Below are positions 1 to 25,004 of a DNA stretch of 64,000 nt, piece by piece. Source of the stretch: Deltaproteobacteria bacterium (GTDB lineage Bacteria > Desulfobacterota > Binatia > UTPRO1); NCBI GenBank assembly GCA_029262315.1, contig JAJCZP010000168.1, positions 10,825 through 74,824 on the forward strand, read 5' to 3'. A program made the translations under genes and the position numbers. Below the pieces are notes generated by a model that was not told the origin of the DNA, did not search any database, and was given only the letters and a program-made list of their open reading frames with translations. The number at the start of each line of letters is the position of its first letter. Position 1 is the stretch's first letter.

Positions 1-880
1 TGACATCCGCACGTGCCGTGCTGGGCTCCGACTCGAACCACTCCACCATCAGCTTGTTGACGTCGTCCGGGTGATCCAGCATCGACCAGTGACCGCCCTG
101 GATGATCTCGACGCGGCACTCGGCGTCCATGTACCGGGGTGTGTCGATGGCCTGCGTCTTCCACAGGAACATGTCGTCCTCGGGGAAGATCACCATGGTC
201 GGCACCTTGCAGTTCGGCAAGCTGTTCGGGTCCTTGGCTTGTGCCAGATAGTCCATCGGAACGTGGTTGGCCCTGTCATAGTTGAGCCACTCGATGCGGC
301 CGGTCTGCTTGACGGCCTCGATGACCTTCTCCGCCTCGGGGTGCTGGCAGAAGAAACTGCGGAAGAACCTGAAATCGTTCGCCATGTAGAGTTCTTCCAT
401 CCCATTGAGACAGTGCATGTACATGTACCAGTTGGCCTTGAGGCACTCATACATCCGTTCCGGGGTTTCATGGGCCTGGCCGAAAACGCACCGCAGGTGG
501 CCAACCGACATGGAAATGAACTTGCGGAACAGTTCCGGGCGTTGGAGGACCATGGGCCATGTGATGGCGGAACCCCAGTCATGGCCCATCAGACAAATGT
601 CCTTGAGGTCCAGCTGGTCGATGATCTCGAACATGTGCCCGATGACCTTCTCGACCTTGTACGCCTCGACCTCCACCGGCCGGTCGGTCCCTCCGTAGCC
701 GAGGGTGTCCGGCACGACCACGCGGTAGCCCGCCTTCAGCAGCGCCGGCGCCTGGTACTTCCAGCAGCTGCCGTCGTCGGGCATGCCGTGGACGAGGAAC
801 GCGACCTTGTCGCCCTCGCCCTGGTCGCTCACGTGATAGTTGTAGCCACCGATCTTCATCGTCTTGCCTGGTAGACTCAT
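1..880 (-). CDS. alpha/beta-hydrolase fold protein (epoxide-hydrolase-like); 3' end runs off window start
   Basis: Reverse-strand translation from ATG at 878-880 gives MSLPGKTMKIGGYNYHV...FLVHGMPDD...MGHDWGSAITW...GGHW. HG oxyanion motif and GHDWG nucleophile elbow are typical of the alpha/beta hydrolase / epoxide hydrolase family. The plus-strand ORF 71..874 is its antisense shadow. Confidence 0.7.
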   Translation of the reverse strand, partial: MSLPGKTMKIGGYNYHVSDQGEGDKVAFLVHGMPDDGSCWKYQAPALLKAGYRVVVPDTLGYGGTDRPVEVEAYKVEKVIGHMFEIIDQLDLKDICLMGHDWGSAITWPMVLQRPELFRKFISMSVGHLRCVFGQAHETPERMYECLKANWYMYMHCLNGMEELYMANDFRFFRSFFCQHPEAEKVIEAVKQTGRIEWLNYDRANHVPMDYLAQAKDPNSLPNCKVPTMVIFPEDDMFLWKTQAIDTPRYMDAECRVEIIQGGHWSMLDHPDDVNKLMVEWFESEPSTARADV

Positions 881-955
881 TCTCGGATCCCTTCCTTTCT
901 TTGAGAATACGGCTGCGGTCCACACGAAGACCGCCCGCTTCGAATGCGCCACCAA

Positions 956-989
956 CCTAGGGATGGGCAGGACCGTTCACATCCCTAGG
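956..989. promoter_or_regulatory. 10-bp perfect inverted repeat (cctagggatg N14 catccctagg) upstream of hydrolase start
   Basis: Read directly from sequence. It lies ~75-110 nt upstream of the minus-strand start at 880. Candidate operator or hairpin. Confidence 0.25.
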
Positions 990-1083
990 AACGGGGGAAA
1001 AACGGGGGACCACCTGGGGGAGTGCTCATCGTCGCCGACCCGGATGCCTCTGACGAAGAGGGTCGCCTCATGCTCCTCGGAAG

Positions 1084-1416
1084 CGGGTCGGGGACATCTC
1101 GGAGGACGCCTTGGCACAGCTGGGGCGATACGCGTTCCCCGGCAACATACGAGAGCTCGAGAACGAGCTGGAGCGGGCGATCCTTCTGGCCGATCCCGGG
1201 GCCGATCTCACGGAGGATCTGCTCTCGGATCATGTTCAGGATGGCGCCGGGGCTGACGCCCCGGCAAGCGCTCTAGACCGTCGCACTGCAGACTTCCAGC
1301 GGAAAGAGATCGAAGAAGCACTCAAACGGGCAGATAACGTCAAGACACGTGCCGCTGAACAACTCGGGATCACCACTCGCGGCCTCAGCAAGAAGATGCA
1401 CCGGCTGGGGATGTAG
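1084..1416 (+). pseudogene. C-terminal remnant of a sigma-54-dependent (NtrC-family) transcriptional activator
   Basis: Translation ...ISEDALAQLGRYAFPGNIRELENELERAILLA...AAEQLGITTRGLSKKMHRLGM. This is the AAA+ C-terminal 'PGNIRELEN' motif plus a Fis-type HTH. An in-frame stop lies immediately upstream (approx. 1051-1053), so there is no N-terminal receiver or AAA+ domain. Only about 110 aa remain. Confidence 0.6.
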
Positions 1417-1740
1417 CTCATCCGAAGGTCAACCGTTGCACCGCCGTGGATAGGCGAGGACCCACGGTATCTGAGCGGCGTCCATGCACCCGACCTCGAA
1501 GTCGCTGATGCAGCGCACGGAATCGATCAGGTCTACGATGGTCGCCACGTCCGCTTCGCAGGTCGCTCCGAGCGGGCCTCTCGCTCCACCGCCCACATAG
1601 CCGTCCTGGGCAAGGTGCCCTTGGGCATACGCGAGTGCTCGCCTACTGCGAGCGCGACACTATAGCGTTCGTCGAACTCCACGCCGCGTCGCGAAAGATA
1701 GGCCGCTAGCTCGATGTCGCCACCGGGAGGCTACGGCGCC

Positions 1741-2844
1741 TCATCCCGATCGCTTCTTTCTGAGCACACCCAGAGTCCGCTCCACCGTGGAGGCCGACCA
1801 TGGGTTACCCTGCTGCGTTCTGCCGCCAACGGCATCGAAACGCGCGGCAATCTCCACAGGCGTCAATCCGGCGTCAGCGAGGGCACGCATCTCCCTATGG
1901 AAGTAGGCTGGGAGCAGCACTTCGAAGGACGTTTCTCGGGCGCCGTCCTCCCAGTGGATGCGACCCCAGATACGCTCACGGTCCCGTCCCTCGATCAGAA
2001 TGGCCTGGACGGCGATCCGGAGAAGCTCCTTCTGGTCGCGCGCCTGGGTGGTTGGGGCAAACCAGATCGCACGAACGTCCCCGCAAATGGCCTCGACCTC
2101 CCTCCACTTCTCGTCCGAGAAGTCGTCTCCGATTCGATCCTCGCCAGCGGCAGCGCCTCCGCGTTCCATCTGCTCAACGCGCTCCGCCAGAGCCTCGATC
2201 TGACTTTCCAGCATCTCACGAACTCGGCGACGGTCCGGTCGACAGGTGGCGTACAGCGCGCCCAGACGATCGAACTCTTCGCGAAGTCGACGAAGCTCAT
2301 GCTGATGTCGTGTACCGGCTCGCCGCTGCTGGCGACGCCGCTCTTCCCAGAGGCGACGTACCTCTGGAATGGAAGGCCCCTGTAAATGATCCAGGAGAAG
2401 CTCAGCGACCCTCGCCTCGAAAGCGAGTCCTGGCATCGATATGCAGGCAGGACCTCCGCTCAGAAGATCTCCCATGCACCGTAGTTGGTACGACTTTGCG
2501 CGCTTCGAAGCGGAGGCCGCATACGCCACGCTCATGACGTGCTCGTCGTGACGCACGCAGCGAACGAGACCCTGCACAAGCGCAGGGCCTCGGCCCAAGG
2601 TCGAGTGGCGCGGGGTGTGGGCGTTTCGCGCGAGGATGCGGAGGTTCTCCTCGAATTCCTCGCGCGAGATGTAGCCCTCGTGATGGCCGAGCACCTCGAC
2701 CCACTGCCCGAACAGGCGCCCATTCACGACGGTGACCCCCTCCGCGCGCTCTTCCGCTTGTTGACCATTCCGTAGACGTAATCGCCGCAGAAGGCAGGGT
2801 GCCTGATCAAGTAGCGGACGCGCGCAACGGTTGGCGCGACCCAA
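1741..2844 (-). CDS. large serine recombinase, C-terminal part (recombinase domain, zinc-ribbon, coiled-coil); frame-shifted relative to the N-terminal ORF
   Basis: HEGYISREEFEENLRIL..., Cys-containing segment YQLRCMGDLLSGGPAC, and long Arg/Glu-rich coiled-coil are typical of large serine recombinases. It overlaps the 2724..3554 ORF in a different frame. Confidence 0.6.
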   Translation of the reverse strand: MGRANRCARPLLDQAPCLLRRLRLRNGQQAEERAEGVTVVNGRLFGQWVEVLGHHEGYISREEFEENLRILARNAHTPRHSTLGRGPALVQGLVRCVRHDEHVMSVAYAASASKRAKSYQLRCMGDLLSGGPACISMPGLAFEARVAELLLDHLQGPSIPEVRRLWEERRRQQRRAGTRHQHELRRLREEFDRLGALYATCRPDRRRVREMLESQIEALAERVEQMERGGAAAGEDRIGDDFSDEKWREVEAICGDVRAIWFAPTTQARDQKELLRIAVQAILIEGRDRERIWGRIHWEDGARETSFEVLLPAYFHREMRALADAGLTPVEIAARFDAVGGRTQQGNPWSASTVERTLGVLRKKRSG

Positions 2845-3554
2845 GCCACGCCGGACCCGCGCTTGGCTGGAATCTCGAGTCCGCGCCTTTTCAGCTCCCG
2901 TACCGTCTGCACGAGCGAGCGCACGGCGCGGAACACCTCGAACACCGACGCAACGGCCGTCCGGACCCGCTTGTCGGGATCCTTCCGCCAGCGACCCGTC
3001 CTGACTTCACGATCGCCCGAGCGCTCGTAGATCGCGCGATAGCCAACAGGCGGACGACTCACCGCCCGCCTATCTCGCACCTTGGCGATCCTGCCACGAT
3101 GCATGTTCTCGGTCCGGAGCTCGTTGTCACGCCCAGCGACGATCGCCTCGATCTGCTTCACGAACACTTGCGCCGAGTCGTGGGGATCGACGAGTCGACC
3201 GTCCACGATCAGCAAGACGTCGTGCGCCGCCAGCAGGCGTAGGAACAAGATCCATTCGACTGGGTCGCGGCCCGCTCGGCTGACATCCGAAATCAGGACG
3301 GCGCCCAGCTCGCCGCGCCGGATCATCGCCAGGAGCCTCTGGTAGCCCGGCCGCTTCGCCGTCATGCCGCTGAGCCCGAGGTCATCGTCGATCATGACGA
3401 TGTCGCGCTCCGACCACCCCAGGCGGAGCGCGTGCTCACGCTGTCCCTCTTGGTATCGCCGGCTGCCCTCGTTCTCTCTGACCTGCTCCAGCGTCGACTG
3501 CCGCTGGTATACGCCAGCCTTCTTCTTCAAGTACCGCTCTTCGATCTTCGTCAT
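2724..3554 (-). CDS. large serine recombinase, N-terminal part (resolvase/invertase catalytic domain plus start of recombinase domain)
   Basis: AGVYQRQSTLEQ carries the catalytic Ser. VLISDVSRAGRD, then ...NPAFCGDYVYG recombinase-domain motif. The ORF ends at 2724 while the continuation is in another frame (1741..2844). This is either a frameshifted pseudogene or a sequencing indel. Confidence 0.7.
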   Translation of the reverse strand: MTKIEERYLKKKAGVYQRQSTLEQVRENEGSRRYQEGQREHALRLGWSERDIVMIDDDLGLSGMTAKRPGYQRLLAMIRRGELGAVLISDVSRAGRDPVEWILFLRLLAAHDVLLIVDGRLVDPHDSAQVFVKQIEAIVAGRDNELRTENMHRGRIAKVRDRRAVSRPPVGYRAIYERSGDREVRTGRWRKDPDKRVRTAVASVFEVFRAVRSLVQTVRELKRRGLEIPAKRGSGVAWVAPTVARVRYLIRHPAFCGDYVYGMVNKRKSARRGSPS

Positions 3555-3743
3555 CGCTGCTTCCCTCCCCTACTCCTAGGTGCGCGCCCAGCACGCAGTT
3601 CTCGCCCTTTGGCCCCTGCCTTCCCCCGAGTCGCAGGGGGGAGCGCGACAACGCCCCCGTGCACCGCCTTGATCGCGAGATGCGCTAGCAACCTGACGGC
3701 GTCCGCCTTCCGCTTGTCGGCCTCCATGGGATGGACGACTAGC

Positions 3744-3783
3744 GCATGAGCTAACATGTTTCAAAAATTGTATGATCTCATGC
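3744..3783. promoter_or_regulatory. AT-rich imperfect inverted repeat (gcatgag N26 ctcatgc) in an otherwise GC-rich region; candidate att/recombinase or promoter site
   Basis: Seen in sequence, ~190-235 nt upstream of the serine recombinase start. Includes an ATGCAT palindrome at 3780-3785. Confidence 0.25.
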
Positions 3784-3961
3784 ATCGTATATCTCCGCTG
3801 TTACTTCGCGGGCTTACGCACGGTCGGCCTCGGCGCGGATCGTCTCGCCTCCAGATCCGTGAGGAGCTGGTGGAGGGCCCGAACCGACACGACTGCGCGG
3901 TCGAGGTCGCACCCTCGGCGGTTGTCGCCTCGCCGGTCGATGGGACCTTCCCGAACGCGAC

Positions 3962-4180
3962 TCATCGCAGCTTCCCCGTACCCGGCTGCGGAGTCCGATC
4001 GGTGGAGCCCTCAAGATCCTTCCCCTGGAGGAACTCCTCTAGAGCAGCGCGGGGCACGACGAAGCGACGCCCGACCCGAACAACCGGTATCTGCCCTTGG
4101 CGAGCTGCCTCGTAGGCACAGCTACGCCCTATCCCGAGGACCTGGGCCGCCTCTTCCACTGTCAGGGTCTCCCTCTCCAT
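3962..4180 (-). CDS. excisionase / AlpA-like helix-turn-helix DNA-binding protein
   Basis: 72 aa. LTVEEAAQVLGIGRSCAYEAARQGQIPVVRVGRRFVVPRAALEEFL matches the excisionase-family HTH_17 pattern. Confidence 0.7.
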   Translation of the reverse strand: MERETLTVEEAAQVLGIGRSCAYEAARQGQIPVVRVGRRFVVPRAALEEFLQGKDLEGSTDRTPQPGTGKLR

Positions 4181-4267
4181 CCCCTCACCTCACTGCTGAC
4201 CCTTGAACTTATAGCGATCGGCTACTAGTAAGGTAACACGCTTTCTCGCACATAAACGTCACGGAGG

Positions 4268-5353
4268 ATGGGGATGATAGATGAGGTCGTGAGGCGAGAG
4301 TTGTTCGACTTCTGCTGGGACGTGCACGTGGACGGCTACACGTTGCTCAAGACGAAGACGGTGAAGAACCGCCCCCCGCTAGTTCGCCCTACACGTCCCA
4401 GGGGCGACGCTGAGCAGGATGTCCATGAACTCGACAAGGAACGGTCACGACCCGCGCTGTTCATCACTAGTGGCCTCCCGCTCGAAGCTCAGGGATTCAA
4501 GCTGAGGAGGTTCGCCCCGCTCGCCGAGACCGGGTTGTTCCGCGAATTCGCGGGGACGGCACCTACACCAGAGGGAGTCCTGGCATTCGCTAACAAGTAT
4601 GGCCTCCTCGGCGGCAGGGTTGCGGCCGAGATCGAGCTTGACCGGCAAGCCGGTCGTGCCGCCGCTCTGGGTGAACCGCTGAGTGCCTGGCGCGATCAGA
4701 TCTTCTTCATTCGCGAGGCTCTGAGGCTCTGGGAGGATACTCGCGCGGGCAATGTCGAACGCCTCGCCAAGGTGATCCGCAAGCGAGAGGTTAGCGGCGA
4801 CGAAGGCGTCGAGTACCAAGCAGAGGAACACCCCAGCAATGAGGTCGGGTTCCCATGCTGGTACGAGAAAATCGCCACGAGAAACGTTTACTCGGACATC
4901 CTCGAGGCTTTTCCGCCAGGTGACTTGATCAAACCCGCGCTCTACCTCGTCCAGCGATGGGTGAACCGGCATCTAGAGGGAAACGTCTCACCCCTGATGC
5001 TGTGGGACAAGCACCGCTTGCGCCTGCAGCTGTACGTCGTGCCGCACAACCTGCTTGGCGCACTCTGGCTGCAGCTTGCTCGAGCGATCGAGGGAGACAA
5101 GATGTACCGCCAGTGCGGGGCCTGTATGAAGTGGTTCGAACTCTCCCCGGACACGGCCCGAACGAATCGGAAATTCTGCTCGAACGCCTGTCGGTCACGC
5201 GACTATCGCGAGCGCACTGCTGCCAGCATGCCTGCCGCTTCCCGAGGGCCTTCTGCCGACCCGCCCGCAAGACGGGAGAAGCCGACATCGCGACGTCAGC
5301 AAGGAAAGGCCGGGGCATCGAGAAGCCGGACCCGGAAGGGAGCAACCAAATGA
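4268..5353 (+). CDS. hypothetical protein with C-terminal zf-CGNR-like zinc ribbon and basic tail
   Basis: C-terminus YRQCGACMKWFELSPDTARTNRKFCSNACRSRDYRER resembles the CGNR zinc finger (C-x2-C ... RxxxFCS.ACRxRxYR). Its stop overlaps the integrase ATG (ATGA), implying translational coupling. An AT-rich divergent promoter region lies at 4181-4267. Confidence 0.5.
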   Translation: MGMIDEVVRRELFDFCWDVHVDGYTLLKTKTVKNRPPLVRPTRPRGDAEQDVHELDKERSRPALFITSGLPLEAQGFKLRRFAPLAETGLFREFAGTAPTPEGVLAFANKYGLLGGRVAAEIELDRQAGRAAALGEPLSAWRDQIFFIREALRLWEDTRAGNVERLAKVIRKREVSGDEGVEYQAEEHPSNEVGFPCWYEKIATRNVYSDILEAFPPGDLIKPALYLVQRWVNRHLEGNVSPLMLWDKHRLRLQLYVVPHNLLGALWLQLARAIEGDKMYRQCGACMKWFELSPDTARTNRKFCSNACRSRDYRERTAASMPAASRGPSADPPARREKPTSRRQQGKAGASRSRTRKGATK

Positions 5354-6519
5354 GGGGACACATTCGACAACGAGGGCAGAGGTCATGGGCGATCGTCCTC
5401 GATCTCGGTCGCGATGCACGAGGCAAGCGCCGACAGAAATGGCACAAGGTTGCCGGGACCAAGCGCGATGCCCAGCGAGAGCTTACTCGCCTACTTCGGG
5501 ATCTCGATACCGGCACCTACGTCGAGCCGTCGCAGATGACAGTCGGCACCTACCTCGAGAAGTGGCTGCGCGACTACGCGAAAACCAACGTCTCCGCCAA
5601 GACATTCGAACGCTATGCCGAGATCGCCCGCGTCCACCTCATCCCTGCGCTCGGCCACTTGCCTCTCGCAAGGATCCAGCCGCTTCATATCCAAGACTAC
5701 TACTCCGTCGCCCTAGAGAGCGGTCGTCGCGACGGCCACGGCGGGCTTTCTGCTCAAACGGTGCTCCATCATCATCGCCTGCTGCGGGCGGCCCTGCGCC
5801 AGGCGCTGAAGTGGCAGCTTCTCGGGCGGAACCCGGCCGACGCCGTCGAGCCTCCCCGGCCCAAACGTCCCGAAATGCGGGTCCTGGATGCAGCGGAAAC
5901 TGGTCGGCTCGTGGCGAGTACGAAGGGAACACGCCTATTCCTTCCTGTGCTGTTGGCCGTCACAACGGGCATGCGACGCGGAGAGATCCTTGGACTCCGT
6001 TGGAAGGACGTGGACTTGAAAAAGGCGACGCTGGCCGTACGACGGTCGCTCGAACAGACCAAGGGCGGCATTCAGTTCAAAGAACCGAAGACGCAGAAGG
6101 GGCGACGCGTGGTAGCTCTGCCAGAAATCGCCGTCGATGCCCTCCGCTCACACAAGACTCGGCAGGCAAAGCATCGCCTCCTATTGGGTCGTGTCTATGA
6201 GAATGGCGATCTCGTTTGCGCCAAGGAAAACGGTAAGCCGACCGTCCCCGCCGATCTCAGCAAGTCCTTCGCACGCCTTCTCGGTCGCCTGGAAGGCGAC
6301 GTCCCGCCGATTCGACTCCACGACCTCCGGCACACTCACGCGACACAATTGCTGCGCGAAGGCATCCACCCGAAGGTCGTTAGCGAGCGGCTCGGCCACT
6401 CGACGGTGGCTTTCACCCTCGACGTCTATTCCCATGTGCTGCCCAGCATGCAGGCTGATGCCGCCCGAAGCATCGACCGCGCACTTGCTCACACCGGAGT
6501 AGCGAACGACACCGATTGA
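5350..6519 (+). CDS. tyrosine-type site-specific integrase (phage integrase family)
   Basis: MRGHIRQRGQRSWAIVLDLG... has the N-terminal arm-binding/SAM-like organisation. Catalytic signature is RRGEILGLRWKDVDL...HDLRHTHAT...LGHSTVAFTLDVYSHV (R..HxxR..Y). The long ORF from 4957 is rejected because its upstream part is the out-of-frame tail of the preceding gene region. Confidence 0.85.
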   Translation: MRGHIRQRGQRSWAIVLDLGRDARGKRRQKWHKVAGTKRDAQRELTRLLRDLDTGTYVEPSQMTVGTYLEKWLRDYAKTNVSAKTFERYAEIARVHLIPALGHLPLARIQPLHIQDYYSVALESGRRDGHGGLSAQTVLHHHRLLRAALRQALKWQLLGRNPADAVEPPRPKRPEMRVLDAAETGRLVASTKGTRLFLPVLLAVTTGMRRGEILGLRWKDVDLKKATLAVRRSLEQTKGGIQFKEPKTQKGRRVVALPEIAVDALRSHKTRQAKHRLLLGRVYENGDLVCAKENGKPTVPADLSKSFARLLGRLEGDVPPIRLHDLRHTHATQLLREGIHPKVVSERLGHSTVAFTLDVYSHVLPSMQADAARSIDRALAHTGVANDTD

Positions 6520-6640
6520 TTTCGACCGCTTCGCGCGACGCTCCCGGCACGACTCTCCGCAAGCTGTTTCGTTCTGATACTCGTCGCACAGGCTCCCGCT
6601 TTCGATTGCGACGGCGCCGCCTTCCAGGTACCGGTGTCGC

Positions 6641-7732
6641 ATGGCCATCCGCCGGGTGCTCATCGAGAACTTCAGAAGCATCAAGAAATGCGAGTTCTTT
6701 CCAACCGACCTTTGCGCTCTTGTGGGGGAGAACAACGCGGGAAAGTCGAACATCCTCGAAGCGCTCGACCTAGTCCTCGGCAGGGACTTCGTAAGCGTGA
6801 ATACCTTCGCGGCATCTGACCACTTCAACCACGACCCAGCTGCGGACATCGTCATCGAAGTGGAGTTCGACCCACCGCTGAAGATCCAGCCGTTCAAGGG
6901 TAGCAGTCCCGTCGAGATCCCGGTTCTGCGCTACACTGTCACCCAGTTCAAGGTCGCAACGAAGCGCGGCAAGAAGGGCGACCCCAGACTGGATACGAAG
7001 TGCCTCGCTACCGACGGGAAGCCGGTTTTCATCCCACAAGAGGCTCCGAAGAAGGGCAAGAAGACGACTTTTGCTCCGCTGACGAACATCCCTCCAGAAG
7101 TCCGCGAGCAGATGCCGGTAATTTTCATAGGGACTGACCGAAGCCTTGATCGACAGCTTCCCTCAGCCGGTCGATGGTCGTTGCTTCGCCGGCTCCTTGA
7201 AGACGTGAACGATCGGCTGCGTGAGACTACCGTTACGGTCGAGAGCAACGGTAAGCTTGTGGAAAAGTCGGCTGTCGAGGTCTTCGAGGAGCAGCTCGCC
7301 TCTGCGCTCGGCACCCTTCGAATTCCGGAGTTCCAACAACTAGAGGAACTCCTGCGTGTACACGCACTCGAGAACCTCGGCTACGACCCCGAGCACGACG
7401 CGGACCGACTGCGCTTCCACTTCGGGCTCTTCGACTCGATGGCCTTCTACCGGACAGTCCGGCTTCTCTTCACAGAAGGAAGTCTCGAACTGGACGCGAC
7501 GCAAATGGGAGAGGGGGCGCAGAACGCACTCGTCATCGCGATCTTCCAGGCGTACGAGGCGCTGCGAAAGAAGGAAGCTGTCTTCCTCCTCGAGGAACCA
7601 GAGATGTTTCTACATCCGCATCGCCGTCGCTTCTTTTACCAAACCCTGCAACGCATCAGCGAGAACAACCAGATCCTCTACAGCACCCATTCTGCCAACT
7701 TCGTCTCGACGCCGGAATACGAGAACGTGTGA
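6641..7732 (+). CDS. OLD-family (overcoming lysogenization defect) ABC-type ATPase domain protein
   Basis: N-terminus IENFRSIKKCEFFPTDLCALVGENNAGKSNILEALDLVLG has the Walker A of the AAA_15/OLD family, cf. P2 Old. C-terminus AVFLLEEPEMFLHPHRRR...YSTHS has Walker B plus H-loop. It ends at TGA 7730-7732. Confidence 0.8.
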   Translation: MAIRRVLIENFRSIKKCEFFPTDLCALVGENNAGKSNILEALDLVLGRDFVSVNTFAASDHFNHDPAADIVIEVEFDPPLKIQPFKGSSPVEIPVLRYTVTQFKVATKRGKKGDPRLDTKCLATDGKPVFIPQEAPKKGKKTTFAPLTNIPPEVREQMPVIFIGTDRSLDRQLPSAGRWSLLRRLLEDVNDRLRETTVTVESNGKLVEKSAVEVFEEQLASALGTLRIPEFQQLEELLRVHALENLGYDPEHDADRLRFHFGLFDSMAFYRTVRLLFTEGSLELDATQMGEGAQNALVIAIFQAYEALRKKEAVFLLEEPEMFLHPHRRRFFYQTLQRISENNQILYSTHSANFVSTPEYENV

Positions 7733-7735
7733 CTC

Positions 7736-8320
7736 GTGTACCGGGATCCTTTCGAGTTCACGCAAGTACGAGCATCCTCACTCGAGCCAACTGAGCAACT
7801 CCGCGAGAAACTTCGTCAGGAACTGGACGCAGAACGCAACGAGCTATTCTTCGCGCGACACGTCATCCTCGTGGAAGGCGATACTGAGAAGCTGGCACTT
7901 CCGGAGTACGCGAGGCGTCTCGGGTTGAACCTCGACCGCGGGGGTTGCTCAATCGTGGAAGTTGGGGGGAAGCGGAACCTGCCCATGTTCCTAGACGTAG
8001 TCAGCTCTTTCGGCATCCCCGTTACCGTTGTCTTCGACACCGACTCGTCCGACTTCCCCAAGGGGAAACAAGACGAGGAGGAAGCCTTCAACGCCGAACT
8101 AAGCGCTCGCCAGAACGATTTAGTACGCGTCACCGAGGTCAGCCCAAAGTACGAGGCTGTTCTCCGCGACCAGATCGGCGACGCTACCTACCAAGCGCTC
8201 TGCCAGAAGTATCCGGGGGCCTCGAAACCGCGTCGGGCGCGACTGATCGCAGCCGACAACGAAGCACCCGTCCCCGCCCTCGCCAACGAGATCCTCAAAC
8301 CGCTCCTCGCACCGGAGTAG
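7736..8320 (+). CDS. OLD-family TOPRIM nuclease domain protein (in frame with upstream ATPase ORF, separated by one TGA)
   Basis: HVILVEGDTEKLALPEYARRLG...VVFDTDSSD are the TOPRIM glutamate and DxD motifs of OLD nucleases. GTG at 7736 is in the same frame as 6641..7732, 3 nt after its stop. Confidence 0.75.
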   Translation: MYRDPFEFTQVRASSLEPTEQLREKLRQELDAERNELFFARHVILVEGDTEKLALPEYARRLGLNLDRGGCSIVEVGGKRNLPMFLDVVSSFGIPVTVVFDTDSSDFPKGKQDEEEAFNAELSARQNDLVRVTEVSPKYEAVLRDQIGDATYQALCQKYPGASKPRRARLIAADNEAPVPALANEILKPLLAPE

Positions 8321-8336
8321 AACTCGGCTACCCGGT

Positions 8337-8359
8337 GGTTTGCAGATGGTTTGCAAACC
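8337..8359. promoter_or_regulatory. hairpin/palindrome ggtttgca-N7-tgcaaacc (contains perfect 12-bp palindrome GGTTTGCAAACC) between OLD gene and tRNA-Ser 3' end
   Basis: Seen in sequence. No U-tract follows. Candidate integrase core-type site or transcription attenuator. Confidence 0.3.
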
Positions 8360-8418
8360 GCTGGCAAGGCCCTCGCAGACTATCAGGACGAGGACCGCAA
8401 GCTCCTGAAGTTATTGAG

Positions 8419-8503
8419 CGGAGGGGGTGGGATTCGAACCCACGAGAGCTTGCGCCCTGCCGGTTTTCAAGACCGGTGCCTTCGACCGCTCGGCCACCCC
8501 TCC
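8419..8503 (-). tRNA. tRNA-Ser (anticodon UGA)
   Basis: Reverse complement folds as GGAGGGG-T-GGCCGAGCGGTCGAAGGC-ACCGG-CTTGAAA-ACCGG-long variable arm-GTGGGTTCGAATCCCAC-CCCCTCC-G. It has a 7-bp acceptor stem, a 5-bp anticodon stem and a loop CU-UGA-AA. The long variable arm indicates a class II tRNA. CCA is not encoded. Plus-strand ORF 8351..8650 ('GGGIRTHE') is the tRNA shadow. Confidence 0.85.
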
Positions 8504-8697: not shown

Positions 8698-11124
8698 TCA
8701 CGGATTGCACTCTGCCGCGTACTCGATACCGACCGCCGACACGTCATCCCCCACGCTCGCATCGGCCATGCAGTCGGCCTTGAACTCGAGAACGCAGCTG
8801 ATGCAGTCGACGTACTCCTGCAGGGTATCGACGTCGGCGTTGGTGCAGTCGAGGCCACTCGGATGAACGCCGTTCGGCGGCACACTGACGCTCGGGCATA
8901 CGTACGGCAGGTCGACGATGTCGCCGAGCGTGATCGTCACGCCGCTCACGGGTTCACCAACGGCATCACACACGCCGTCCTTGTCGGCGTCGCCGCCCCC
9001 ACCGCACGTCTTGCAGATCTTGGCGATGCTCTTCTGCTCGGCCTTTTTGATCTTCTCGGTGGTCTTGCTGTCGCCGGGGGTGGCGGGTGGATTGCCCGAG
9101 CCGAGTGAGGGATCGGTCTCGGGACATGCGTCGGCATCGTCATATCCGGTCTTGCTCTTCAACTTGGCGTCCCAGCACTTGTTCAAGAGCTTGTGCTTGG
9201 TCACCAGGAACTTGCCGCCCTCTTTGGCGATGGTCTCCTGACACTTGTTGACCCGCTTCCCGGGATCGCCGCTGTTGGCCGGGAAGAAGCTCGCCGTGTT
9301 GAACTCGTCGTAGAGGAGATGGTCGACGGCCTGATCCACGGCCTTGTCGACGATACATTCGAGGCACGTTCCGATGCCGCCACAATCGGTGATGGCATTG
9401 TCGCATTCGGTCCCGGTGCCTGACTCGAGGTTCATGCAGCTGCCGATGCCCCAGCCGATCGCAGCGAGCGTCTCGTCACCGTCACCCGGGGCAACCTCAC
9501 AGATCCTGTTCGACCCCCCGCAGCGCTTGGCGATCCCGTCCTTCAGCTTGGTGACGGCACGGTCGATCTTGCTACCGGGGGTCTTCAGGGCCGCGACCGT
9601 GCAGTTGGCAAAGTCGGGCATGAGCGGCGGATCGCCGCGGGTCATCGACGCTTTCTTGCACTTGTCGATGTTCTTCTGCACCTGCTTCGCGTACTTGCCG
9701 ACTTCTTTGTTGATGGCGCGCGTACACTTGGCGGAGTCGCTGCTTGCGGGTGTGGCCACGCCATCAGCAATCCCCTCGATGGCCGCCACGAGGGCGTTGT
9801 ACGCGATCAACTGGCCGGCGTTCAGGTTGCCGACGGGAAGCAGATTCATGGTCTCGAACGGGAAGGCGTTCAGGTCGAAGAACTCTTCATACACCCCATT
9901 CCGCCAGATCAACTTGTACTGATCGTCGCGAACGGCACGCTGCTCGTCGGTATACGGACCGAAACCGTTCGGCTCGAAGCGCTCGGCGTAGGAATAGGGC
10001 CGAGCCGAGGAGGTCGTGAGCGTGGGATCTTCGAGATACGGCACGAAACTCAGCGAGTCTTCGGTCGCGGCTGCGACCCCTGCGATCTCGGCGATGGTCG
10101 CGAGCAGATCCACCGAGCTGACGAGCGCCTGGCTCTCGTCGCCTTCGTCGAGGGCATCGATCCGCGGGCCCGTCACGATCAACGGGACGTTGGTTCCACC
10201 TTCGTACAGCGACCCCTTGGCGTGCGGCCCGGTGAACGGGGATTCCGACGCGCCCGACGGCGTACCGTTGTCGCCGATGAAGATGACCGTGGTATCGGCC
10301 CGGATGGGAGCAGGAATACTCGCCAATACACGGCCGATCTCGGTGTCCATCGCTTCCACGGCGGCCTTGAACTTGGTGGGATTGTCGGAGCCGGCATTGA
10401 CCGCAATGGTCGTGAGACTCGGTGGCGGCACGTGGAACGGCGTATGGGCAGCGTTGAACGCCAGCCACACGAACCACGGATCCTCGCCATACTCGGCGAT
10501 CTTCGCGATCGCCTCGTCGGCGGCGTCGGTCGTAGCATAGGTGGTCACGCCGACCTGGGTGGAGCCCGTCGTGCTCGTCGAGTTGGTCGTCTTGTTCCAC
10601 GATTCGTAGTCGCCGATGCCACCGCCGAGCCCGCCGGCGTAGTAGTCGAAGCCGGTGTCGATCGGGTGGTCGACATCGCCGTTATCGCCGATGTGCCATT
10701 TCCCGATCGCGGCGGTGTGATGCGTCGCCGTAAGTAACTCCGGAATCGTCGTCTCGTCGAGATCGAGCACCGCCGACTCGGGCACGCCGATGCCGGTCCG
10801 GAATCCGTAGCGTCCGGTCAGGGCCTCGGCGCGTGTCGGCGCGCATACGGGGTTCGTCGATGCGTGGCGAAACAGGATGCCGTCGGCGGCCAGCTGATCG
10901 ATATTGGGCGTGGGACCCGGAGCCGCCCCTTCGCCGTAGACGTTGATCCCGTCCACGCCGACGTCATCGGCGATGATGATCAGGAAGTTGTCTCGCGCCT
11001 GCGCCCACGTGGGGAGGAGAACGGCGACGAGCAACGCGATTGCCCGGAGCGCGCTCGCACTCCGACGTACGCGGCCCGCGTTGGTGGCGTGGCCCGCGTG
11101 AGCAACTCTTCGGGTTCTCGACAT
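8698..11124 (-). CDS. secreted formylglycine-type sulfatase (arylsulfatase family) with ~330-aa Cys/Lys-rich C-terminal extension
   Basis: Signal peptide ...ALRAIALLVAVLLPTWAQA. LIIIADDVG and NPVCAPTRAEALTGRY are the C-x-P-x-R formylglycine motif. GKWHIGD is also present. The C-terminal ~330 aa carry about 26 Cys in two similar modules (KCTRAINKEVGKYAKQVQKNIDKCKK... / KCQETIAKEGGKFLVTKHKLLNKCWDAKLK...). Confidence 0.8.
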   Translation of the reverse strand: MSRTRRVAHAGHATNAGRVRRSASALRAIALLVAVLLPTWAQARDNFLIIIADDVGVDGINVYGEGAAPGPTPNIDQLAADGILFRHASTNPVCAPTRAEALTGRYGFRTGIGVPESAVLDLDETTIPELLTATHHTAAIGKWHIGDNGDVDHPIDTGFDYYAGGLGGGIGDYESWNKTTNSTSTTGSTQVGVTTYATTDAADEAIAKIAEYGEDPWFVWLAFNAAHTPFHVPPPSLTTIAVNAGSDNPTKFKAAVEAMDTEIGRVLASIPAPIRADTTVIFIGDNGTPSGASESPFTGPHAKGSLYEGGTNVPLIVTGPRIDALDEGDESQALVSSVDLLATIAEIAGVAAATEDSLSFVPYLEDPTLTTSSARPYSYAERFEPNGFGPYTDEQRAVRDDQYKLIWRNGVYEEFFDLNAFPFETMNLLPVGNLNAGQLIAYNALVAAIEGIADGVATPASSDSAKCTRAINKEVGKYAKQVQKNIDKCKKASMTRGDPPLMPDFANCTVAALKTPGSKIDRAVTKLKDGIAKRCGGSNRICEVAPGDGDETLAAIGWGIGSCMNLESGTGTECDNAITDCGGIGTCLECIVDKAVDQAVDHLLYDEFNTASFFPANSGDPGKRVNKCQETIAKEGGKFLVTKHKLLNKCWDAKLKSKTGYDDADACPETDPSLGSGNPPATPGDSKTTEKIKKAEQKSIAKICKTCGGGGDADKDGVCDAVGEPVSGVTITLGDIVDLPYVCPSVSVPPNGVHPSGLDCTNADVDTLQEYVDCISCVLEFKADCMADASVGDDVSAVGIEYAAECNP

Positions 11125-11327
11125 GGCTTCACCCCCATCGTCGGATCAGTGCATCTGTTGAACCGCATTCAGGGTCACGGCGAGTCGGCACTCCCCCTAC
11201 GCGGCGTGCCAGCACTACAGCACTCGGGAACCCCTAGGGTCAACAGCGCACCAACGCTCATCTGGCCGGATTGCGATGTGCCCGCTTCGCAACCCGCACG
11301 GGCATCTGGCATCATCCGGCCGCGATC

Positions 11328-13652
11328 ATGCTTTATTTCCGTGTCAGCGAAGACCGCCCACGTACAGGGGAATCATCTTCGCGACGGCGGCAGTGGTCCC
11401 ATCCCGCCGTGCTCAGCGTCCTCGCAATGCTCCTGCTGGCTTGCGACGGCCCCACGGAGCCCACCGCACCCCCGGCGAACCCACCAACTCGGGCCGCGGC
11501 GACACCGGCCGCGCCCGCGGAGTACGTGACGAGCGAGGCGTGCGCTAGCTGCCATGCCGAAGCCTACGCGTCCTGGACAGGCTCGCACCACGACCTCGCC
11601 ATGCAACCCGCGACGGAGACGACTGTCGAGGGCGACTTCGACGACACCTCCTTCACGCACCGGGGAGTGACCTCGCGCTTCTTCCGCCGCAAGGAGCGTT
11701 TCGTCGTTCATACGCAGGGCGCCGACGGGGTCATGGCCGATTTCGAGGTCCTGTACACCTTCGGCGCGATGCCGCTCCAACAATACCTCGTTCGGCAACC
11801 GGACGGCCGGCTCCACGCGCTCACCACCGCCTGGGACGCGCGACCCGCGAGCGACGGCGGACAGCGCTGGTTCGAGCTGAACGATGGTGAGGTGCCACCG
11901 GGCGACGTGCTCCACTGGACAGGACCGGCTCAGAATTGGAACGCCACCTGCGCCGCATGCCATTCGACCGCCCTCCGGAAGGGTTTCGACATCGACGCCG
12001 GGACGTACGACACGACCTGGTCGGACGTGAACGTTGGGTGCGAGGCGTGTCACGGACCGGCCTCGCGACACGTCGCGTGGGCCGAGCGCGAACCAACAGA
12101 GAACACCGACGACGACACTCGCGGGCTGGTAGTCGATCTCGGCAACGACGGCGGGCGCTGGGTCATGAATCCCACGACAGGAATCGCCCGGCGCAGCACG
12201 CCACTCAGTACACGGACCGAGATCGACACCTGCGCCCCCTGCCATGCGCGACGCTCGATGCTACGTGAGGCGGATCCTGGCACTCCGTTTCTCGACGCCT
12301 ACCGTCCAGCATTGCTGGAGCCCGGGCTGTACCACGCCGACGGGCAGATCCGCGACGAGGTCTACGTGTGGGGCTCCTTCGTACAGAGTCGCATGTACCG
12401 TGCGGGCGTCACGTGCAGCGATTGCCATGAGCCACACACGCTGACCGTGCGCGGCGACACCGAACGCGTGTGCCACCAGTGTCACGATGTCGCGCGCTTC
12501 GGTACGACCGGGCATCACCACCATACGCCGGGAACACCAGGATCGGCTTGCGTCGACTGCCACATGCCTGCGCGCACGTACATGGGTGTCGACGAACGGC
12601 GCGATCACGGATTTCAGGTTCCGCGGCCGGATCTCAGCGCACGTCTCGATACCCCGAACGCCTGCAATGGATGCCACGCGGACCAACCCGCATCCTGGGC
12701 AGCGCGCGCGATCGCCGATTGGCCGGGCACGAAGCACGCGGGCACACCCCATTTTGCCGACGTGATGGTCACTGCCGCTCGCGGGGAGCCCGAGGCCATC
12801 CAAGGGCTGGCGGGCCTGAGCGCCGATCCGGACCTGGCCGGGATCGTGCGGGCGACGGCGTTGGCGCAGCTGCCCGGGGCGTTGACGCAGCTCCCCGGGG
12901 CCCCGGCCCCGCTCCTCGCCGCCGCCATCATGCGGGCGCGCGATGATACCGATCCACTGGTTCGCTTCGCCGCCGCGGGCGCCGCGGCTGGGCTCCCCCC
13001 CGCCGATCGCATCGCGCTGCTGACGCCTCTCCTTGCGGATCCCGTGGAGCTGGTTCGAAGCGAGGCCGGCCGCAACCTCGCGCCTGCGCCGCGAACCGCG
13101 CTCGACGCGGCGCAGGCCGAACGGCTCGACGCGGCCCTGCGCACGTACCGACGCCACCAACGGACGAACGCCGACCAGCCGAGCGCCCACGTCAATCTTG
13201 GCCTGCTCTACGCGGAGATGCAGCAACCCTCCCTGGCCGAGAGCGCCTACCGGCGCGCGATCGCGGTCGGGCCGTGGTTCATCCCGGCCTACGTCAACCT
13301 GGCCGATCTGTACCGCGCCACGGGACGGGACGAGAACAGCGAGGCGGTGCTGCTCGCCGCGCTCGAGCAGACACACGACGTCGCGGAGGTCCACCACGCA
13401 CTGGGCCTCCTCCGCGTGCGGCAACAGCGGCTCGATGCCGCCCTCCCTTCGCTCGAGACCGCTGCGACGCTCGCACCTGAGAATCCCCGCTTCGCCTACG
13501 TATACGGCGTGGCCCTGCACTCCTCCGGCCGGACCGAGCAGGCCCTCGACGTGCTGCGCGCGGCGCGCGCACGACATCCGCATCACACCGAGACGAGCCA
13601 GGCCCTCGCCACGTTCGGCCGCGAGCCCGGCGTCGACAGCGCCGACGACTAG
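11328..13652 (+). CDS. multiheme (8x CXXCH) c-type cytochrome lipoprotein with C-terminal TPR-like repeats
   Basis: Eight CXXCH motifs: CASCH, CAACH, CEACH, CAPCH, CSDCH, CHQCH, CVDCH, CNGCH. Lipobox LLLAC. The C-terminal ~250 aa are Ala/Leu-rich TPR-like (..AHVNLGLLYAEMQQPSLAESAYRRAIAVGP..YVNLADLY..). Start chosen is ATG 11328; alternatives are GTG 11409 and ATG 11427. The ORF from 11271 is possible. Confidence 0.7.
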   Translation: MLYFRVSEDRPRTGESSSRRRQWSHPAVLSVLAMLLLACDGPTEPTAPPANPPTRAAATPAAPAEYVTSEACASCHAEAYASWTGSHHDLAMQPATETTVEGDFDDTSFTHRGVTSRFFRRKERFVVHTQGADGVMADFEVLYTFGAMPLQQYLVRQPDGRLHALTTAWDARPASDGGQRWFELNDGEVPPGDVLHWTGPAQNWNATCAACHSTALRKGFDIDAGTYDTTWSDVNVGCEACHGPASRHVAWAEREPTENTDDDTRGLVVDLGNDGGRWVMNPTTGIARRSTPLSTRTEIDTCAPCHARRSMLREADPGTPFLDAYRPALLEPGLYHADGQIRDEVYVWGSFVQSRMYRAGVTCSDCHEPHTLTVRGDTERVCHQCHDVARFGTTGHHHHTPGTPGSACVDCHMPARTYMGVDERRDHGFQVPRPDLSARLDTPNACNGCHADQPASWAARAIADWPGTKHAGTPHFADVMVTAARGEPEAIQGLAGLSADPDLAGIVRATALAQLPGALTQLPGAPAPLLAAAIMRARDDTDPLVRFAAAGAAAGLPPADRIALLTPLLADPVELVRSEAGRNLAPAPRTALDAAQAERLDAALRTYRRHQRTNADQPSAHVNLGLLYAEMQQPSLAESAYRRAIAVGPWFIPAYVNLADLYRATGRDENSEAVLLAALEQTHDVAEVHHALGLLRVRQQRLDAALPSLETAATLAPENPRFAYVYGVALHSSGRTEQALDVLRAARARHPHHTETSQALATFGREPGVDSADD

Positions 13653-13697: not shown

Positions 13698-13730
13698 GCA
13701 CCCGCCTCCCGCTGGCGGGTGCCGTGTTTT
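13698..13730 (+). terminator. rho-independent terminator downstream of cytochrome gene
   Basis: gcacccgcc-tcccgct-ggcgggtgc, a 9-bp GC stem with 7-nt loop, followed by cgtgtttt. Confidence 0.55.
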
Positions 13731-13992
13731 GCTCCCTCCGCATCCGGGGCCCCACCCGCACGGCGATAGCGCACCCCAGACCCGCACCCAAGCGCGCGCA
13801 CCGAAAGCCGAAACGCGCAGGCGCGCCCGCGCCCACCATGAGACTTCCCGTGCCTCGCGCCACTCGCCGTCGCGGGCGCGCGACTTGCTGTTTCCCTCTG
13901 TCGTGAGCAGACCGAACACGAATTCGACGCACTCCACGGGCCGTAGCGCCGAGCGCACTGCGCGTGCGACCACGCAACCAAGCGGCGCCGCC

Positions 13993-15009
13993 GTGGCGGG
14001 CGTCACGAAATCGTCGACCTCACCCTCGAAACGACAACGGCTTTCGAAGGCGGCGCTCGCCCTCCTCGTGGGCGTGCTGGCAATCGCATGGAGTCCGCGC
14101 GTCGAGGCGTTGATCGTTGGCGGCGGAGGCAGCCGCACAACGGACTGCCTCGCCGTCTTCAACGCGCCCGCGAATCGCCCCGCGCGCCGGCCACGCCACA
14201 TTCAGTGCACCGACGGCGACCCCTGCGATGCGGACGGCCTGGTCGATGGCCAGTGCAGCTTCCCGGTCGCGGCCTGCATCAACAGCACGCTGATCGATCG
14301 CTGCTCCCTGACCGGCATCGAGACCCTCACGGTCGAGCATGCCGAGGACAATGGCGACCCGGAGTTCGACCCCGACTTCCAGGCACTGCAGGCGCGCATC
14401 GACGCCGACCTGACTTTCCCGAGCCTCGCGACGAACCAGTGTGCGCTACCAGCCACGATCCAGGTACCCGTCCGCGGGCCCTTCCGGAAGAATCGCTGCA
14501 AGAAGGGGAAGAAGCGCCTGCGAATGCGCGCCGTCTCGACCCTGATCGACGACCGACGCGTCAAGGTCGATCGCGACGACCTCAAGCTCACGTGCCTGCC
14601 GGCACCGAGCGGCTGCAGTCCACGTCAATTCTTCTCGTCCACCTTCGATCGAGTGCAGCGCCAGATCTTCAATCAGACCTGCGCGGTCAGTGCCTGCCAC
14701 GACTCGGAAGCCGTCGCGGGCAGCCTGCTCCTCGAGACGGGCGCGTCGCATGCCAACCTGGTGGGCGCGATCCCAACGAACGCTCTCGCCGGGAATGCCG
14801 GCTGGCACCGCGTCGCGGTTCCCGCGCCGGGCACCGGCGATCTCACACGAAGCTACCTGCTGCACAAGATCACGGGGGACCTGCCCACAGGCTTCGGCTC
14901 ACGCATGCCTCTCGGCGGACGCAAGCTCGATCGCACGTTGGTGGACGTCATCACGCTTTGGATCGCCGCGGGTGCTCCGAACGACGGGTGGGTCCCCGGA
15001 ACAGACTAG
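13993..15009 (+). CDS. secreted Cys-rich protein with C-terminal PSCyt1-like (planctomycete cytochrome-c-like) domain
   Basis: Putative signal peptide KRQRLSKAALALLVGVLAIAWSPRVEA after GTG 13993. C-terminus FDRVQRQIFNQTCAVSACHDS...LLLE...VPAPGTGDLTRSYLLHKITGDLP...MPLGGRKLDRTLVDVITLWIAAGAP matches the PSCyt1 pattern but with C-x4-CH instead of CXXCH. Start is uncertain; the long ORF from 13729 has an Arg-rich, unlikely N-terminus. Confidence 0.45.
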   Translation: MAGVTKSSTSPSKRQRLSKAALALLVGVLAIAWSPRVEALIVGGGGSRTTDCLAVFNAPANRPARRPRHIQCTDGDPCDADGLVDGQCSFPVAACINSTLIDRCSLTGIETLTVEHAEDNGDPEFDPDFQALQARIDADLTFPSLATNQCALPATIQVPVRGPFRKNRCKKGKKRLRMRAVSTLIDDRRVKVDRDDLKLTCLPAPSGCSPRQFFSSTFDRVQRQIFNQTCAVSACHDSEAVAGSLLLETGASHANLVGAIPTNALAGNAGWHRVAVPAPGTGDLTRSYLLHKITGDLPTGFGSRMPLGGRKLDRTLVDVITLWIAAGAPNDGWVPGTD

Positions 15010-22919: not shown

Positions 22920-23711
22920 CTACGCCAGCCCCAACATCTCGCTGATGCCGTAGCGGTGCCCAGCCGTCAGGCCGCCGTCGACGACGAGGGCATGCCCGAC
23001 GACGAACGAGGCATCGTCCGAGGCCAGGAACAGCACGGCGGAGGCGATCTCTTCGGAGCGCCCCAAACGCCCGAGCTGATGCGCATCGGCGATGCGCTCG
23101 CGCACCGGACCGAGATCGTTCTGGTCGAAGATGGACCGCAACAGCGGCGTATCGACGAAGCCCGGGCAGACGCAGTTCACGCGGATGCCGCGCCGCGCAT
23201 AGTCGATGGCGAGGTTTTTCGTCAGGACCACGACCCCGCCCTTCGAGGCGTTGTAGGCGCTGCCGCCTTCGGTTCCTTCGAGGCCCTCGATACTCGCGAT
23301 ATTGACGATGTTGCCGGCGCGGCGTTCGAGCATCCCCTCGACCGCGTACTTGCACATGAGGTACGTGCCTTTGAGATTGATGTCGACGACGCGGTCCCAC
23401 TCCTCGCTCGGCAACATGTGCACCGGCCCACCACCGCCGACGCCAGCGGCATTCACGAGGACATCGAGCCGACCGAAACGCTCCTCGACCGCGCGCACCG
23501 TGGCTTGAACGCCCTGCTCATCTCGAACATCACCGGCGCGATACAGCGACTCCGGCGCGTCCGCGACCAACGTTGCCCAGTTGGCGGGCTCCTCACTGAC
23601 GTCGAAGCCGGCGACACGAGCCCCCTCGCGCGCGAACCGTTCAACACACGCGGCGCCTATACCCGATGCGGCGCCCGTCACGAGTGCAACCTTGTTCTCC
23701 AAACGTCCCAT
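22920..23711 (-). CDS. SDR family NAD(P)-dependent oxidoreductase
   Basis: TGAASGIG Rossmann motif, NAAG, and YNASK catalytic motif. Confidence 0.85.
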   Translation of the reverse strand: MGRLENKVALVTGAASGIGAACVERFAREGARVAGFDVSEEPANWATLVADAPESLYRAGDVRDEQGVQATVRAVEERFGRLDVLVNAAGVGGGGPVHMLPSEEWDRVVDINLKGTYLMCKYAVEGMLERRAGNIVNIASIEGLEGTEGGSAYNASKGGVVVLTKNLAIDYARRGIRVNCVCPGFVDTPLLRSIFDQNDLGPVRERIADAHQLGRLGRSEEIASAVLFLASDDASFVVGHALVVDGGLTAGHRYGISEMLGLA

Positions 23712-23714
23712 GAC

Positions 23715-24641: not shown

Positions 24642-24709
24642 ACTGTGCCGGCACTTTCACTCCCAGGCCTCGGTGGCAGGCGCAGGCCGCAGTTGCTAGA
24701 CTCTGCGCC

Positions 24710-24997
24710 GTGAAGATTGGCCCCGACGATATCCGCACGGTGGCACGCCTCGCCCGCCTCAATCTCACCCCGGAAGAAGAGGCGAGCATGGTCACGACCC
24801 TCGATGCGATCCTGACCTACATGGAAACCCTGAACGCCCTCGATACTACCGACATCGAACCGACCGCGCATATCATCGACCTCGAAACCCCGTGGCGCGC
24901 TGACGAGGTCACGAACGAGGCCAACACCGAGGCGCTGCTCGCCAACGCCCCTGCGCGCGACGGCAACCACTTCCGCGTCCCCAAGATCATCGATTGA
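24710..24997 (+). CDS. gatC: Asp-tRNA(Asn)/Glu-tRNA(Gln) amidotransferase subunit C
   Basis: [27 protein letters not shown]...NVMREDEV-like pattern. 95 aa from GTG 24710, immediately upstream of gatA. The long ORF from 24635 has a non-protein-like N-terminus. Confidence 0.8.
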
Positions 24998-25004
24998 TCC
25001 GCGC

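Follow-up and report, generated by a model that had tools for sequence, protein, structure and literature searches.

A tandem cysteine-rich helical didomain, without matches in Pfam, NCBIfam or the PDB, fused to a secreted S1 sulfatase of a Binatia bacterium

Formylglycine-dependent sulfatases of family S1 (PF00884; SulfAtlas S1) include solved enzymes such as 9fo1, a kappa-carrageenan sulfatase of subfamily S1_16, and 9hh3 of subfamily S1_19, and members that carry extra modules are already known, for example the 1263-aa (amino acid) PDB entry 9s8x. Here we analyse a 64-kb stretch (hereafter the window) of contig JAJCZP010000168.1 from a Deltaproteobacteria bacterium of the Binatia, an uncultured lineage of soil and sediment that is globally common. 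Its ORF list contains a minus-strand open reading frame (ORF), 8698..11124, that encodes an 808-aa product. Over the N-terminal 455 aa this protein resembles S1 sulfatases across the whole catalytic fold; it differs from them by an uncatalogued module appended at the C-terminus (aa 461–808), which we call the didomain. The sulfatase itself is routine; the family of the didomain is conserved, of considerable size and without a match in Pfam, NCBIfam or the PDB.

A preliminary description of this locus had proposed that the C-terminal region is a non-standard addition to a sulfatase, and our searches bear this out, as no match to a well-characterised family emerged from Pfam, NCBIfam, PDB sequences or Foldseek. 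Residues 474–808 match zero Pfam or NCBIfam families at E ≤ 1, three relatives (P0003, P0007 and P0010) have no NCBIfam match either, and a didomain profile has 0 matches at E ≤ 10 among all PDB sequences. Aa 461–808 are therefore not a catalogued carbohydrate-binding, dockerin or other domain of Pfam-A, NCBIfam or the PDB. No record matched the window protein when it was looked up exactly, and we found no relevant literature on Binatota sulfatases, cysteine-rich Binatia proteins or multimodular cysteine-rich sulfatases. Several superficial likenesses were set aside. One acidic loop, D-A-D-K-D-G-V-C-D, resembles a calcium-binding TSP3 loop of the form D-x-D-x-D-G-x-x-D (PF02412/PF18884) and has no Pfam match at E ≤ 1; membership of DUF4215 was likewise rejected for want of a Pfam match; and haem binding, or identity as a multihaem c-type cytochrome, was discarded since a motif search of all 808 aa found no CXXCH, in agreement with the preliminary description.

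The layout first sketched from the sequence holds, with adjusted numbers. A sulfatase of about 480 aa followed by about 330 aa with some 26 cysteines had been proposed; the catalytic domain ends near aa 455–460, and the 348 aa of the C-terminal region contain 22 cysteines (6.3% of residues). Aa 1–460 hold a single cysteine, the catalytic Cys94. The region had also been called lysine-rich, which is accurate as to its 33 lysines and incomplete as to the rest: 35 aspartates and 17 glutamates leave it net acidic (net charge −13, isoelectric point 4.8).

The proposal of two similar modules has firmer ground than expected from plain blastp, which aligns module 1 with module 2 weakly (E 1e-4). When a family alignment of 27 sequences is split into its two halves and these are compared as profiles, hhalign matches them over 133 columns at a probability of 99.2% and E 7.7e-20, so the modules are homologous, repeats of one unit, and the duplication is real; the module-1 profile also matches module 2 in a distant relative. 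AlphaFold2, given the same 27-sequence alignment, models the didomain confidently (mean predicted local distance difference test score, pLDDT, 87; predicted template-modelling score 0.89; five models all at 86–87). Module 1 consists of a first helix of about 35 aa (H1), a second of about 17 aa (H2), a cysteine-rich loop and a third helix of about 25 aa (H3). Module 2 follows the same three-helix plan with a longer loop, which bears the acidic stretch named above; in each module the cysteine-rich loop spans 45–60 residues and is largely irregular. A compact relative, P0025, which shares 27–31% identity with the remaining aligned members, is modelled with an identical helix plan and a mean pLDDT above 90 across most of the didomain. 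Foldseek comparisons with the PDB gave nothing significant for either model (best E 3.3 for the window didomain and 0.2 for P0025), and the hits are generic helical bundles. The C-terminal region is probably an autonomous, extracytoplasmic double three-helix bundle, which we infer to be stapled by 11 disulfides in all; an even and constant number of cysteines fits such a structural role.

Relatives were first gathered by word-indexed protein searches, which found 25, and a further search of this kind with the 27-sequence alignment gave 6 hits, including one new protein. HMMER was then run exhaustively against 1.84 billion cluster representatives (clusters at 50% identity); 586 didomain clusters scored E ≤ 1e-3, of which 403 reached ≤ 1e-10 and 142 reached ≤ 1e-30. 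We retrieved 170 members, from which all conservation and placement counts below derive. Exactly two modules are present in 161 of these, four in 3, and one in 6 short, possibly partial proteins. The modal number of didomain cysteines is 22 (104 of 156 proteins). All 22 positions are conserved at 74% or more, 18 of them at 96–100%, and those of module 1 at 90–100% bar C48, at 74%. Further conserved positions are the G-G after the helix-2 cysteine, W98 in a loop (84%), Q169, W191, P208 and the terminal Y-P-x-x-C. Basic residues recur at i, i+4, i+11 and i+15 of the first helix in both modules (K13, K17, K24, K28 and K174, K178, K185, K189); except for K17, which is invariant only among 7 close relatives, these positions are K or R in at least 70% of members, as are further basic positions of helix 2. 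The features by which we provisionally define the family are all present in the window protein: two tandem modules, C-x21-C in helix 1, C-G-G after helix 2, C-x2-C starting helix 3, about 22 cysteines and an extracytoplasmic setting. For the last of these we rely on a signal peptide read from the sequence, and the match to the family profile supports membership.

The preliminary description had suggested looking for the module on other hydrolases, and it does occur there, together with an M19 peptidase, a metallophosphoesterase, a polyhydroxybutyrate-depolymerase-type esterase or a lactonase. The emphasis on enzymes needs correcting, as the module is seen far less often on these than N-terminally on large secreted proteins rich in cysteine, and the sulfatase is a rare partner. 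In 105 of the 170 members the didomain lies directly behind the signal peptide and is followed by a long tail; in 32 it forms the extreme C-terminus, in 3 it is internal and in 30 it stands alone. A crude hydrophobic-stretch test finds a signal-peptide-like N-terminus in about 95% of complete members. Across 111 members (35 + 76), scans with Pfam show partners as varied as PQQ, Kelch and PD40 propellers, NosD/beta-helix proteins, adhesin- or lectin-like domains (Laminin_G_3, Big_2, cadherin-like, FG-GAP, Lcl_C and TSP3, a true TSP_3 being present elsewhere in 3 relatives), domains of unknown function (DUF4215, DUF7450, DUF7453 and DUF1554) and hydrolases (Peptidase_M19, Metallophos, Esterase_PHB and lactonase/SGL). 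Each partner domain is seen in just a few proteins, most tails have no Pfam match, and within this set the sulfatase occurs only in the orthologue group of the window protein.

The tails form a subject of their own. The commonest partner is a C-terminal tail of about 400–500 aa without Pfam or NCBIfam match, in proteins that have 56–69 cysteines each; examples are P0010–P0022 and the loci L003 5800-8292 and L007 5929-8538, with motifs such as 'LSAASP.C...G....C.CDTC' and a terminal 'GLPGL.R...PGT'. Blastp joins 69 tails of the 105 N-terminal-didomain proteins into one cysteine-rich cluster, which looks like a second uncatalogued family.

Because the didomain is found on unrelated secreted proteins, N-terminally in some and C-terminally in others, and by itself as well, we favour, with moderate confidence, the reading that it is a non-catalytic targeting or binding module that localises its passenger to a common extracellular partner and has little role in sulfatase chemistry. 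For the window protein the following sequence of events is envisaged. Once the enzyme is exported, with Cys94 turned into formylglycine by a maturase encoded elsewhere, the matured sulfatase would hydrolyse sulfate esters outside the cytoplasm. The didomain would consist of two homologous bundles of three helices, both with a cysteine-knotted loop as their cap, and may tether the enzyme to a component of the cell envelope or matrix, or to another protein, using as its contact surface the variable loop caps, the conserved tryptophan and the conserved basic positions on the helical stalks.

The didomain, as a non-catalytic addition to a secreted hydrolase, also invites comparison with a carbohydrate-binding module (CBM), here one that would bind the sulfated polymer that the sulfatase attacks. 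The conserved loop residue W98 and the basic helix positions are compatible with that idea, and carrageenans or other sulfated polysaccharides are the substrates of the nearest solved sulfatases. Partner diversity and charge weaken it: none of the 34 other scanned proteins with a C-terminal or internal didomain is a sulfatase, the partners are chemically unrelated to one another, most copies sit on non-enzymatic cysteine-rich proteins, and the didomain is net acidic. We regard substrate binding of this kind as unlikely.

Three points weigh against a targeting or binding role as well. The argument for tethering is one of domain-architecture logic throughout; the didomain is net acidic in the window protein and, in milder form, in the family (median −3); and didomain genes have no recurrent partner gene, the neighbourhoods of L002–L011 being heterogeneous. 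Owing to the acidic charge, a simple polycationic binder was rejected, and binding of polyanions by the lysines is not obvious; these may instead form internal salt bridges.

Terminal placement bears on a further alternative, namely that the didomain, instead of binding a ligand, serves recognition or sorting by a system of export, surface attachment or processing peculiar to the lineage, for instance one linked to an exosortase. The didomain either starts immediately behind the signal peptide, with 'A-x-A↓D-P-x-K-C' at the junction, or closes the protein with a conserved Y-P-x-x-C, and a 155-aa mini-exosortase is encoded 6 bp behind the stand-alone didomain protein P0001 (L009 3619-4086, plus strand, and also L010; TIGR04178 scores 44.8 bits, cut-off 23; XrtH is the closest model, 1.4e-16). 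The two contigs carry an identical protein, so this adjacency counts as one observation, and it is absent from the window, L001–L008 and L011–L012. Moreover, PEP-CTERM and the C-terminal domain of the type IX secretion system (T9SS CTD) keep to one fixed terminus whereas the didomain uses either, the didomain lacks both a PEP-like motif and a transmembrane helix at its C-terminus, and P0001 has no PEP-CTERM-like tail. A sorting signal thus appears quite improbable to us.

The targeting reading can be taken a step further. It is conceivable, though we hold it to be rather doubtful, that Binatia-like bacteria have a hitherto unrecognised system of protein display or assembly founded on the didomain. 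A disulfide-stapled helical adaptor might then dock dozens of secreted enzymes and adhesin-like proteins per genome, of which the sulfatase would be one cargo. The receptor could be a common one in the envelope or matrix, or the stand-alone didomain proteins themselves, in the manner of cohesin and dockerin.

The CXXC pairs raise a different question, because they could belong to a redox-active domain or one that assists maturation in cis and offsets a missing maturase. Both pairs (C127-x2-C130 and C314-x2-C317) lie at or near the start of H3 of their module and are conserved at 98–100%. Neither the formylglycine-generating enzyme FGE (FGE-sulfatase, PF03781) nor a radical-SAM/SPASM anaerobic sulfatase-maturating enzyme (anSME) matched any of the roughly 50 genes called in the window, as the preliminary description had said of the vicinity, and none is listed on the 17-kb orthologous contig L001. 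Sulfatase maturases are, in general, often encoded away from sulfatase genes, so their absence here is not peculiar and says little for such a role. The partners of the didomain are overwhelmingly not sulfatases, no thioredoxin, Erv or FGE signal was seen in fold or sequence, and the even, constant cysteine count fits structural disulfides. A redox or maturation function is in our judgement very improbable, and a targeting or binding module remains the reading we prefer.

The enzyme to which the didomain is attached had been described as a secreted formylglycine sulfatase with a C-A-P-T-R motif, and this is supported. PF00884 covers aa 46–350 (E 1.1e-40; 140.3 bits, cut-off 25) and PF16347 (SGSH_C) aa 303–429. 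The formylglycine signature, which starts at residue 94, is complete: the CAPTRAEALTGR motif is intact, with C/S-x-P-x-R followed by x4-T-G-R. The other S1 motifs (D53/D54, G-K142-W-H144, H227, D285/N286 and K303) are all present and align with their counterparts in 9fo1; we take D53, D54, K142, H144, H227, D285, N286 and K303 to have the metal-binding and catalytic roles usual in this family. Among PDB sequences, its nearest relatives (E 1e-33) are carrageenan sulfatases that belong to S1_16 and S1_19. They are too distant, and identity to characterised enzymes is too low, for a subfamily or substrate to be assigned. Judged by eye, the N-terminus has a basic n-region, a hydrophobic core (AIALLVAVLL) and a cleavage-type site, A-Q-A↓R-D, and looks like a cleavable signal peptide. 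On these predictions the sulfatase part is a standard exported Cys-type S1 enzyme, expected to undergo formylglycine conversion and to hydrolyse sulfate esters.

A rare architecture from an uncultured organism could reflect an assembly or frameshift artefact that joined two separate genes. The reading frame is a single unbroken ORF, and its GC content at third codon positions (GC3) of 0.83 is as in genuine genes of the window (GC 65%). The same fusion is present in three independent assemblies: P0006, on contig L001, and the protein of L012 are both 808 aa long and share 93% and 95% protein identity, respectively, with the window protein, on contigs with 82–84% DNA identity to the window. Compared with L001, synonymous divergence (dS) is 0.56 and the ratio of nonsynonymous to synonymous rates (dN/dS) is 0.08 overall, 0.058 in the didomain and 0.103 in the sulfatase part. 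Misassembly and frameshift are excluded by the uninterrupted frame, equal-length orthologues with many synonymous differences and low dN/dS across the junction, and we consider an artefact extremely improbable. These ratios also indicate that purifying selection on the didomain is at least as strong as on the enzyme.

The didomain appears to be a lineage-specific mobile module of Binatia-like bacteria and a hallmark of their secretome. A scan of genome contigs for close relatives, made with a 7-sequence alignment, revealed four didomain paralogues in a Microflora-Danica metagenome-assembled genome (MAG) labelled 'uncultured delta proteobacterium' and two in a MAG labelled 'Candidatus Binatia bacterium'; P0022 is carried by a MAG labelled 'Deltaproteobacteria bacterium'. 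Two didomain paralogues from different MAGs have flanking genes in common (L005 1589-3625 and L006 1803-3844), namely those for a membrane protein of about 480 aa, a lipoprotein-like ORF of about 170 aa and, downstream, a membrane protein of about 265 aa. The two loci may thus be orthologous, with their neighbours conserved.

The features of the gene and its surroundings are collected below.

Features of the window, in order of position, with the basis for each
Feature	Position	Strand	Basis
Apparent 3' remnant of a second, divergent didomain gene	1432..1659	-	Six-frame hmmsearch, E 2.4e-7, module-2 positions 126-181
Large serine recombinase	2724-3554	-	Resolvase/Recombinase Pfam matches
Tyrosine integrase	4957-6519		Pfam
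OLD-family nuclease, split into AAA_15/AAA_21 and TOPRIM ORFs	6641-8320		Pfam
tRNA-Ser(TGA)	8418..8503	-	ARAGORN; 194 bp past the sulfatase stop
Whole gene, secreted sulfatase-didomain fusion, 808 aa	8698..11124	-	ORF list and equal-length orthologues; stop codon 8698-8700
Didomain module 2, aa 621-808, 12 Cys	8701..9264	-	AlphaFold2, hhalign, conservation, dN/dS 0.08
Didomain module 1, aa 463-620, 10 Cys	9265..9738	-	AlphaFold2, hhalign, Cys conservation
Short linker GVATPAS, aa 456-462	9739..9759	-	Separates the sulfatase homology from helix H1 of module 1
S1 (type I, formylglycine-dependent) sulfatase catalytic domain, aa 44-455	9760..10995	-	PF00884, PF16347, PDB relatives
Formylglycine signature C94-A-P-T-R-A-E-A-L-T-G-R	10810..10845	-	Motif search; aligned to CSPTRASILTGK of 9fo1
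Predicted signal peptide, aa 1-43	10996..11124	-	Read from sequence; kept in P0006
Divergent octahaem c-type cytochrome with C-terminal TPR region	11271..13652	+	8 CXXCH; Pfam multihaem and TPR matches

The divergent octahaem cytochrome gene noted in the preliminary description is present and not in itself unusual. It also adjoins the orthologue in L001, and its linkage tells little about function, since it is seen only among genomes that are 82–84% identical. By blastn, the window is collinear with L001 and L012 through the tRNA-Ser, sulfatase, cytochrome, DUF1800, DUF1501 and sigma-factor genes, to about 19–20 kb. At the other end both alignments stop at 8417, exactly at the tRNA, so positions 1–8417 form a strain-specific island at a tRNA hotspot. 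As synteny spans both the tRNA-Ser and the sulfatase gene, the latter lies on the conserved chromosomal side, beside the integration hotspot, and the idea that it is cargo of the neighbouring integrase/OLD island was rejected. A search of the island for att-type repeats of the tRNA gave chance 11-mers only. An integrase also sits at the tRNA site in L001.

Within the island, the short ORF at 1432–1659 shares 35% identity with aa 755–791 of the sulfatase-didomain protein (tblastn) and ends '...CEADVATIVDLIDSVRCISDFEVGCMDAAQIPWVLAYPRRCNG*'. It lies on the same strand as the serine recombinase gene and immediately downstream of it, and looks like a second family member cut off by a mobile element.

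Elsewhere in the window, the cytochrome and DUF1800 genes are separated by a conserved hypothetical gene (13729-15009, plus strand; L001 5007-5954), after which the DUF1800/DUF1501 pair follows. The window ORF has 426 aa and the one called in L001 has 315 aa, and the true window start is probably later. Its product, which has no Pfam or NCBIfam match, has a cysteine-rich N-terminus, and one C-A-V-S-A-C-H motif lies in a region that resembles planctomycete PSCyt-type cytochrome domains. A 585-aa ORF at 22956-24713 (plus strand) has an atypical composition (GC 0.82 at first codon positions, GC3 0.73) and is probably no real gene, and the gatC–gatB interval, 24997-26336, which a simple gene caller left uncalled, presumably holds gatA.

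Lineage-specific accessory domains are newly found on a regular basis, and the didomain bears on no long-standing open question and brings no surprise in mechanism. The value of this locus lies in the appended domain, which is represented by at least 586 clusters at 50% identity, can be folded confidently in silico and is under strong selection. A family definition would annotate hundreds of secreted proteins now called 'hypothetical', and would allow its sulfatase, peptidase, esterase and propeller members to be recognised as a single set associated with the surface or matrix. The isolated 35-kDa didomain could provide a handle on how Binatia organise their extracellular enzymes.

Among described systems, several offer partial parallels. 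Like dockerin, the S-layer homology (SLH) domain, CBMs, the T9SS CTD and PEP-CTERM, the didomain is a compact terminal unit found on unrelated secreted proteins within one lineage. It differs from all of these in that our searches showed no relation to them in sequence or fold, in being all-alpha with 11 putative disulfides, and in occurring at either terminus and also alone. The DUF4215/Myxococcus cysteine-rich repeat (PF13948, TIGR02232) is likewise cysteine-rich, extracytoplasmic and 'deltaproteobacterial', and co-occurs with the didomain in 7 of 111 relatives, but it is a short beta-rich CGNG...CDDGN repeat, whereas the didomain is helical and does not match it. Tandem three-helix-bundle proteins such as PhoU (1t8b, 4q25) share the overall form of two such bundles in succession and provide the top-probability Foldseek rows for P0025. 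That match is not significant (E 0.6–0.8, probability 0.25–0.33, TM-score at most 0.35) and reflects a generic resemblance; PhoU is cytoplasmic and has neither the disulfides nor the loop caps that distinguish the didomain.

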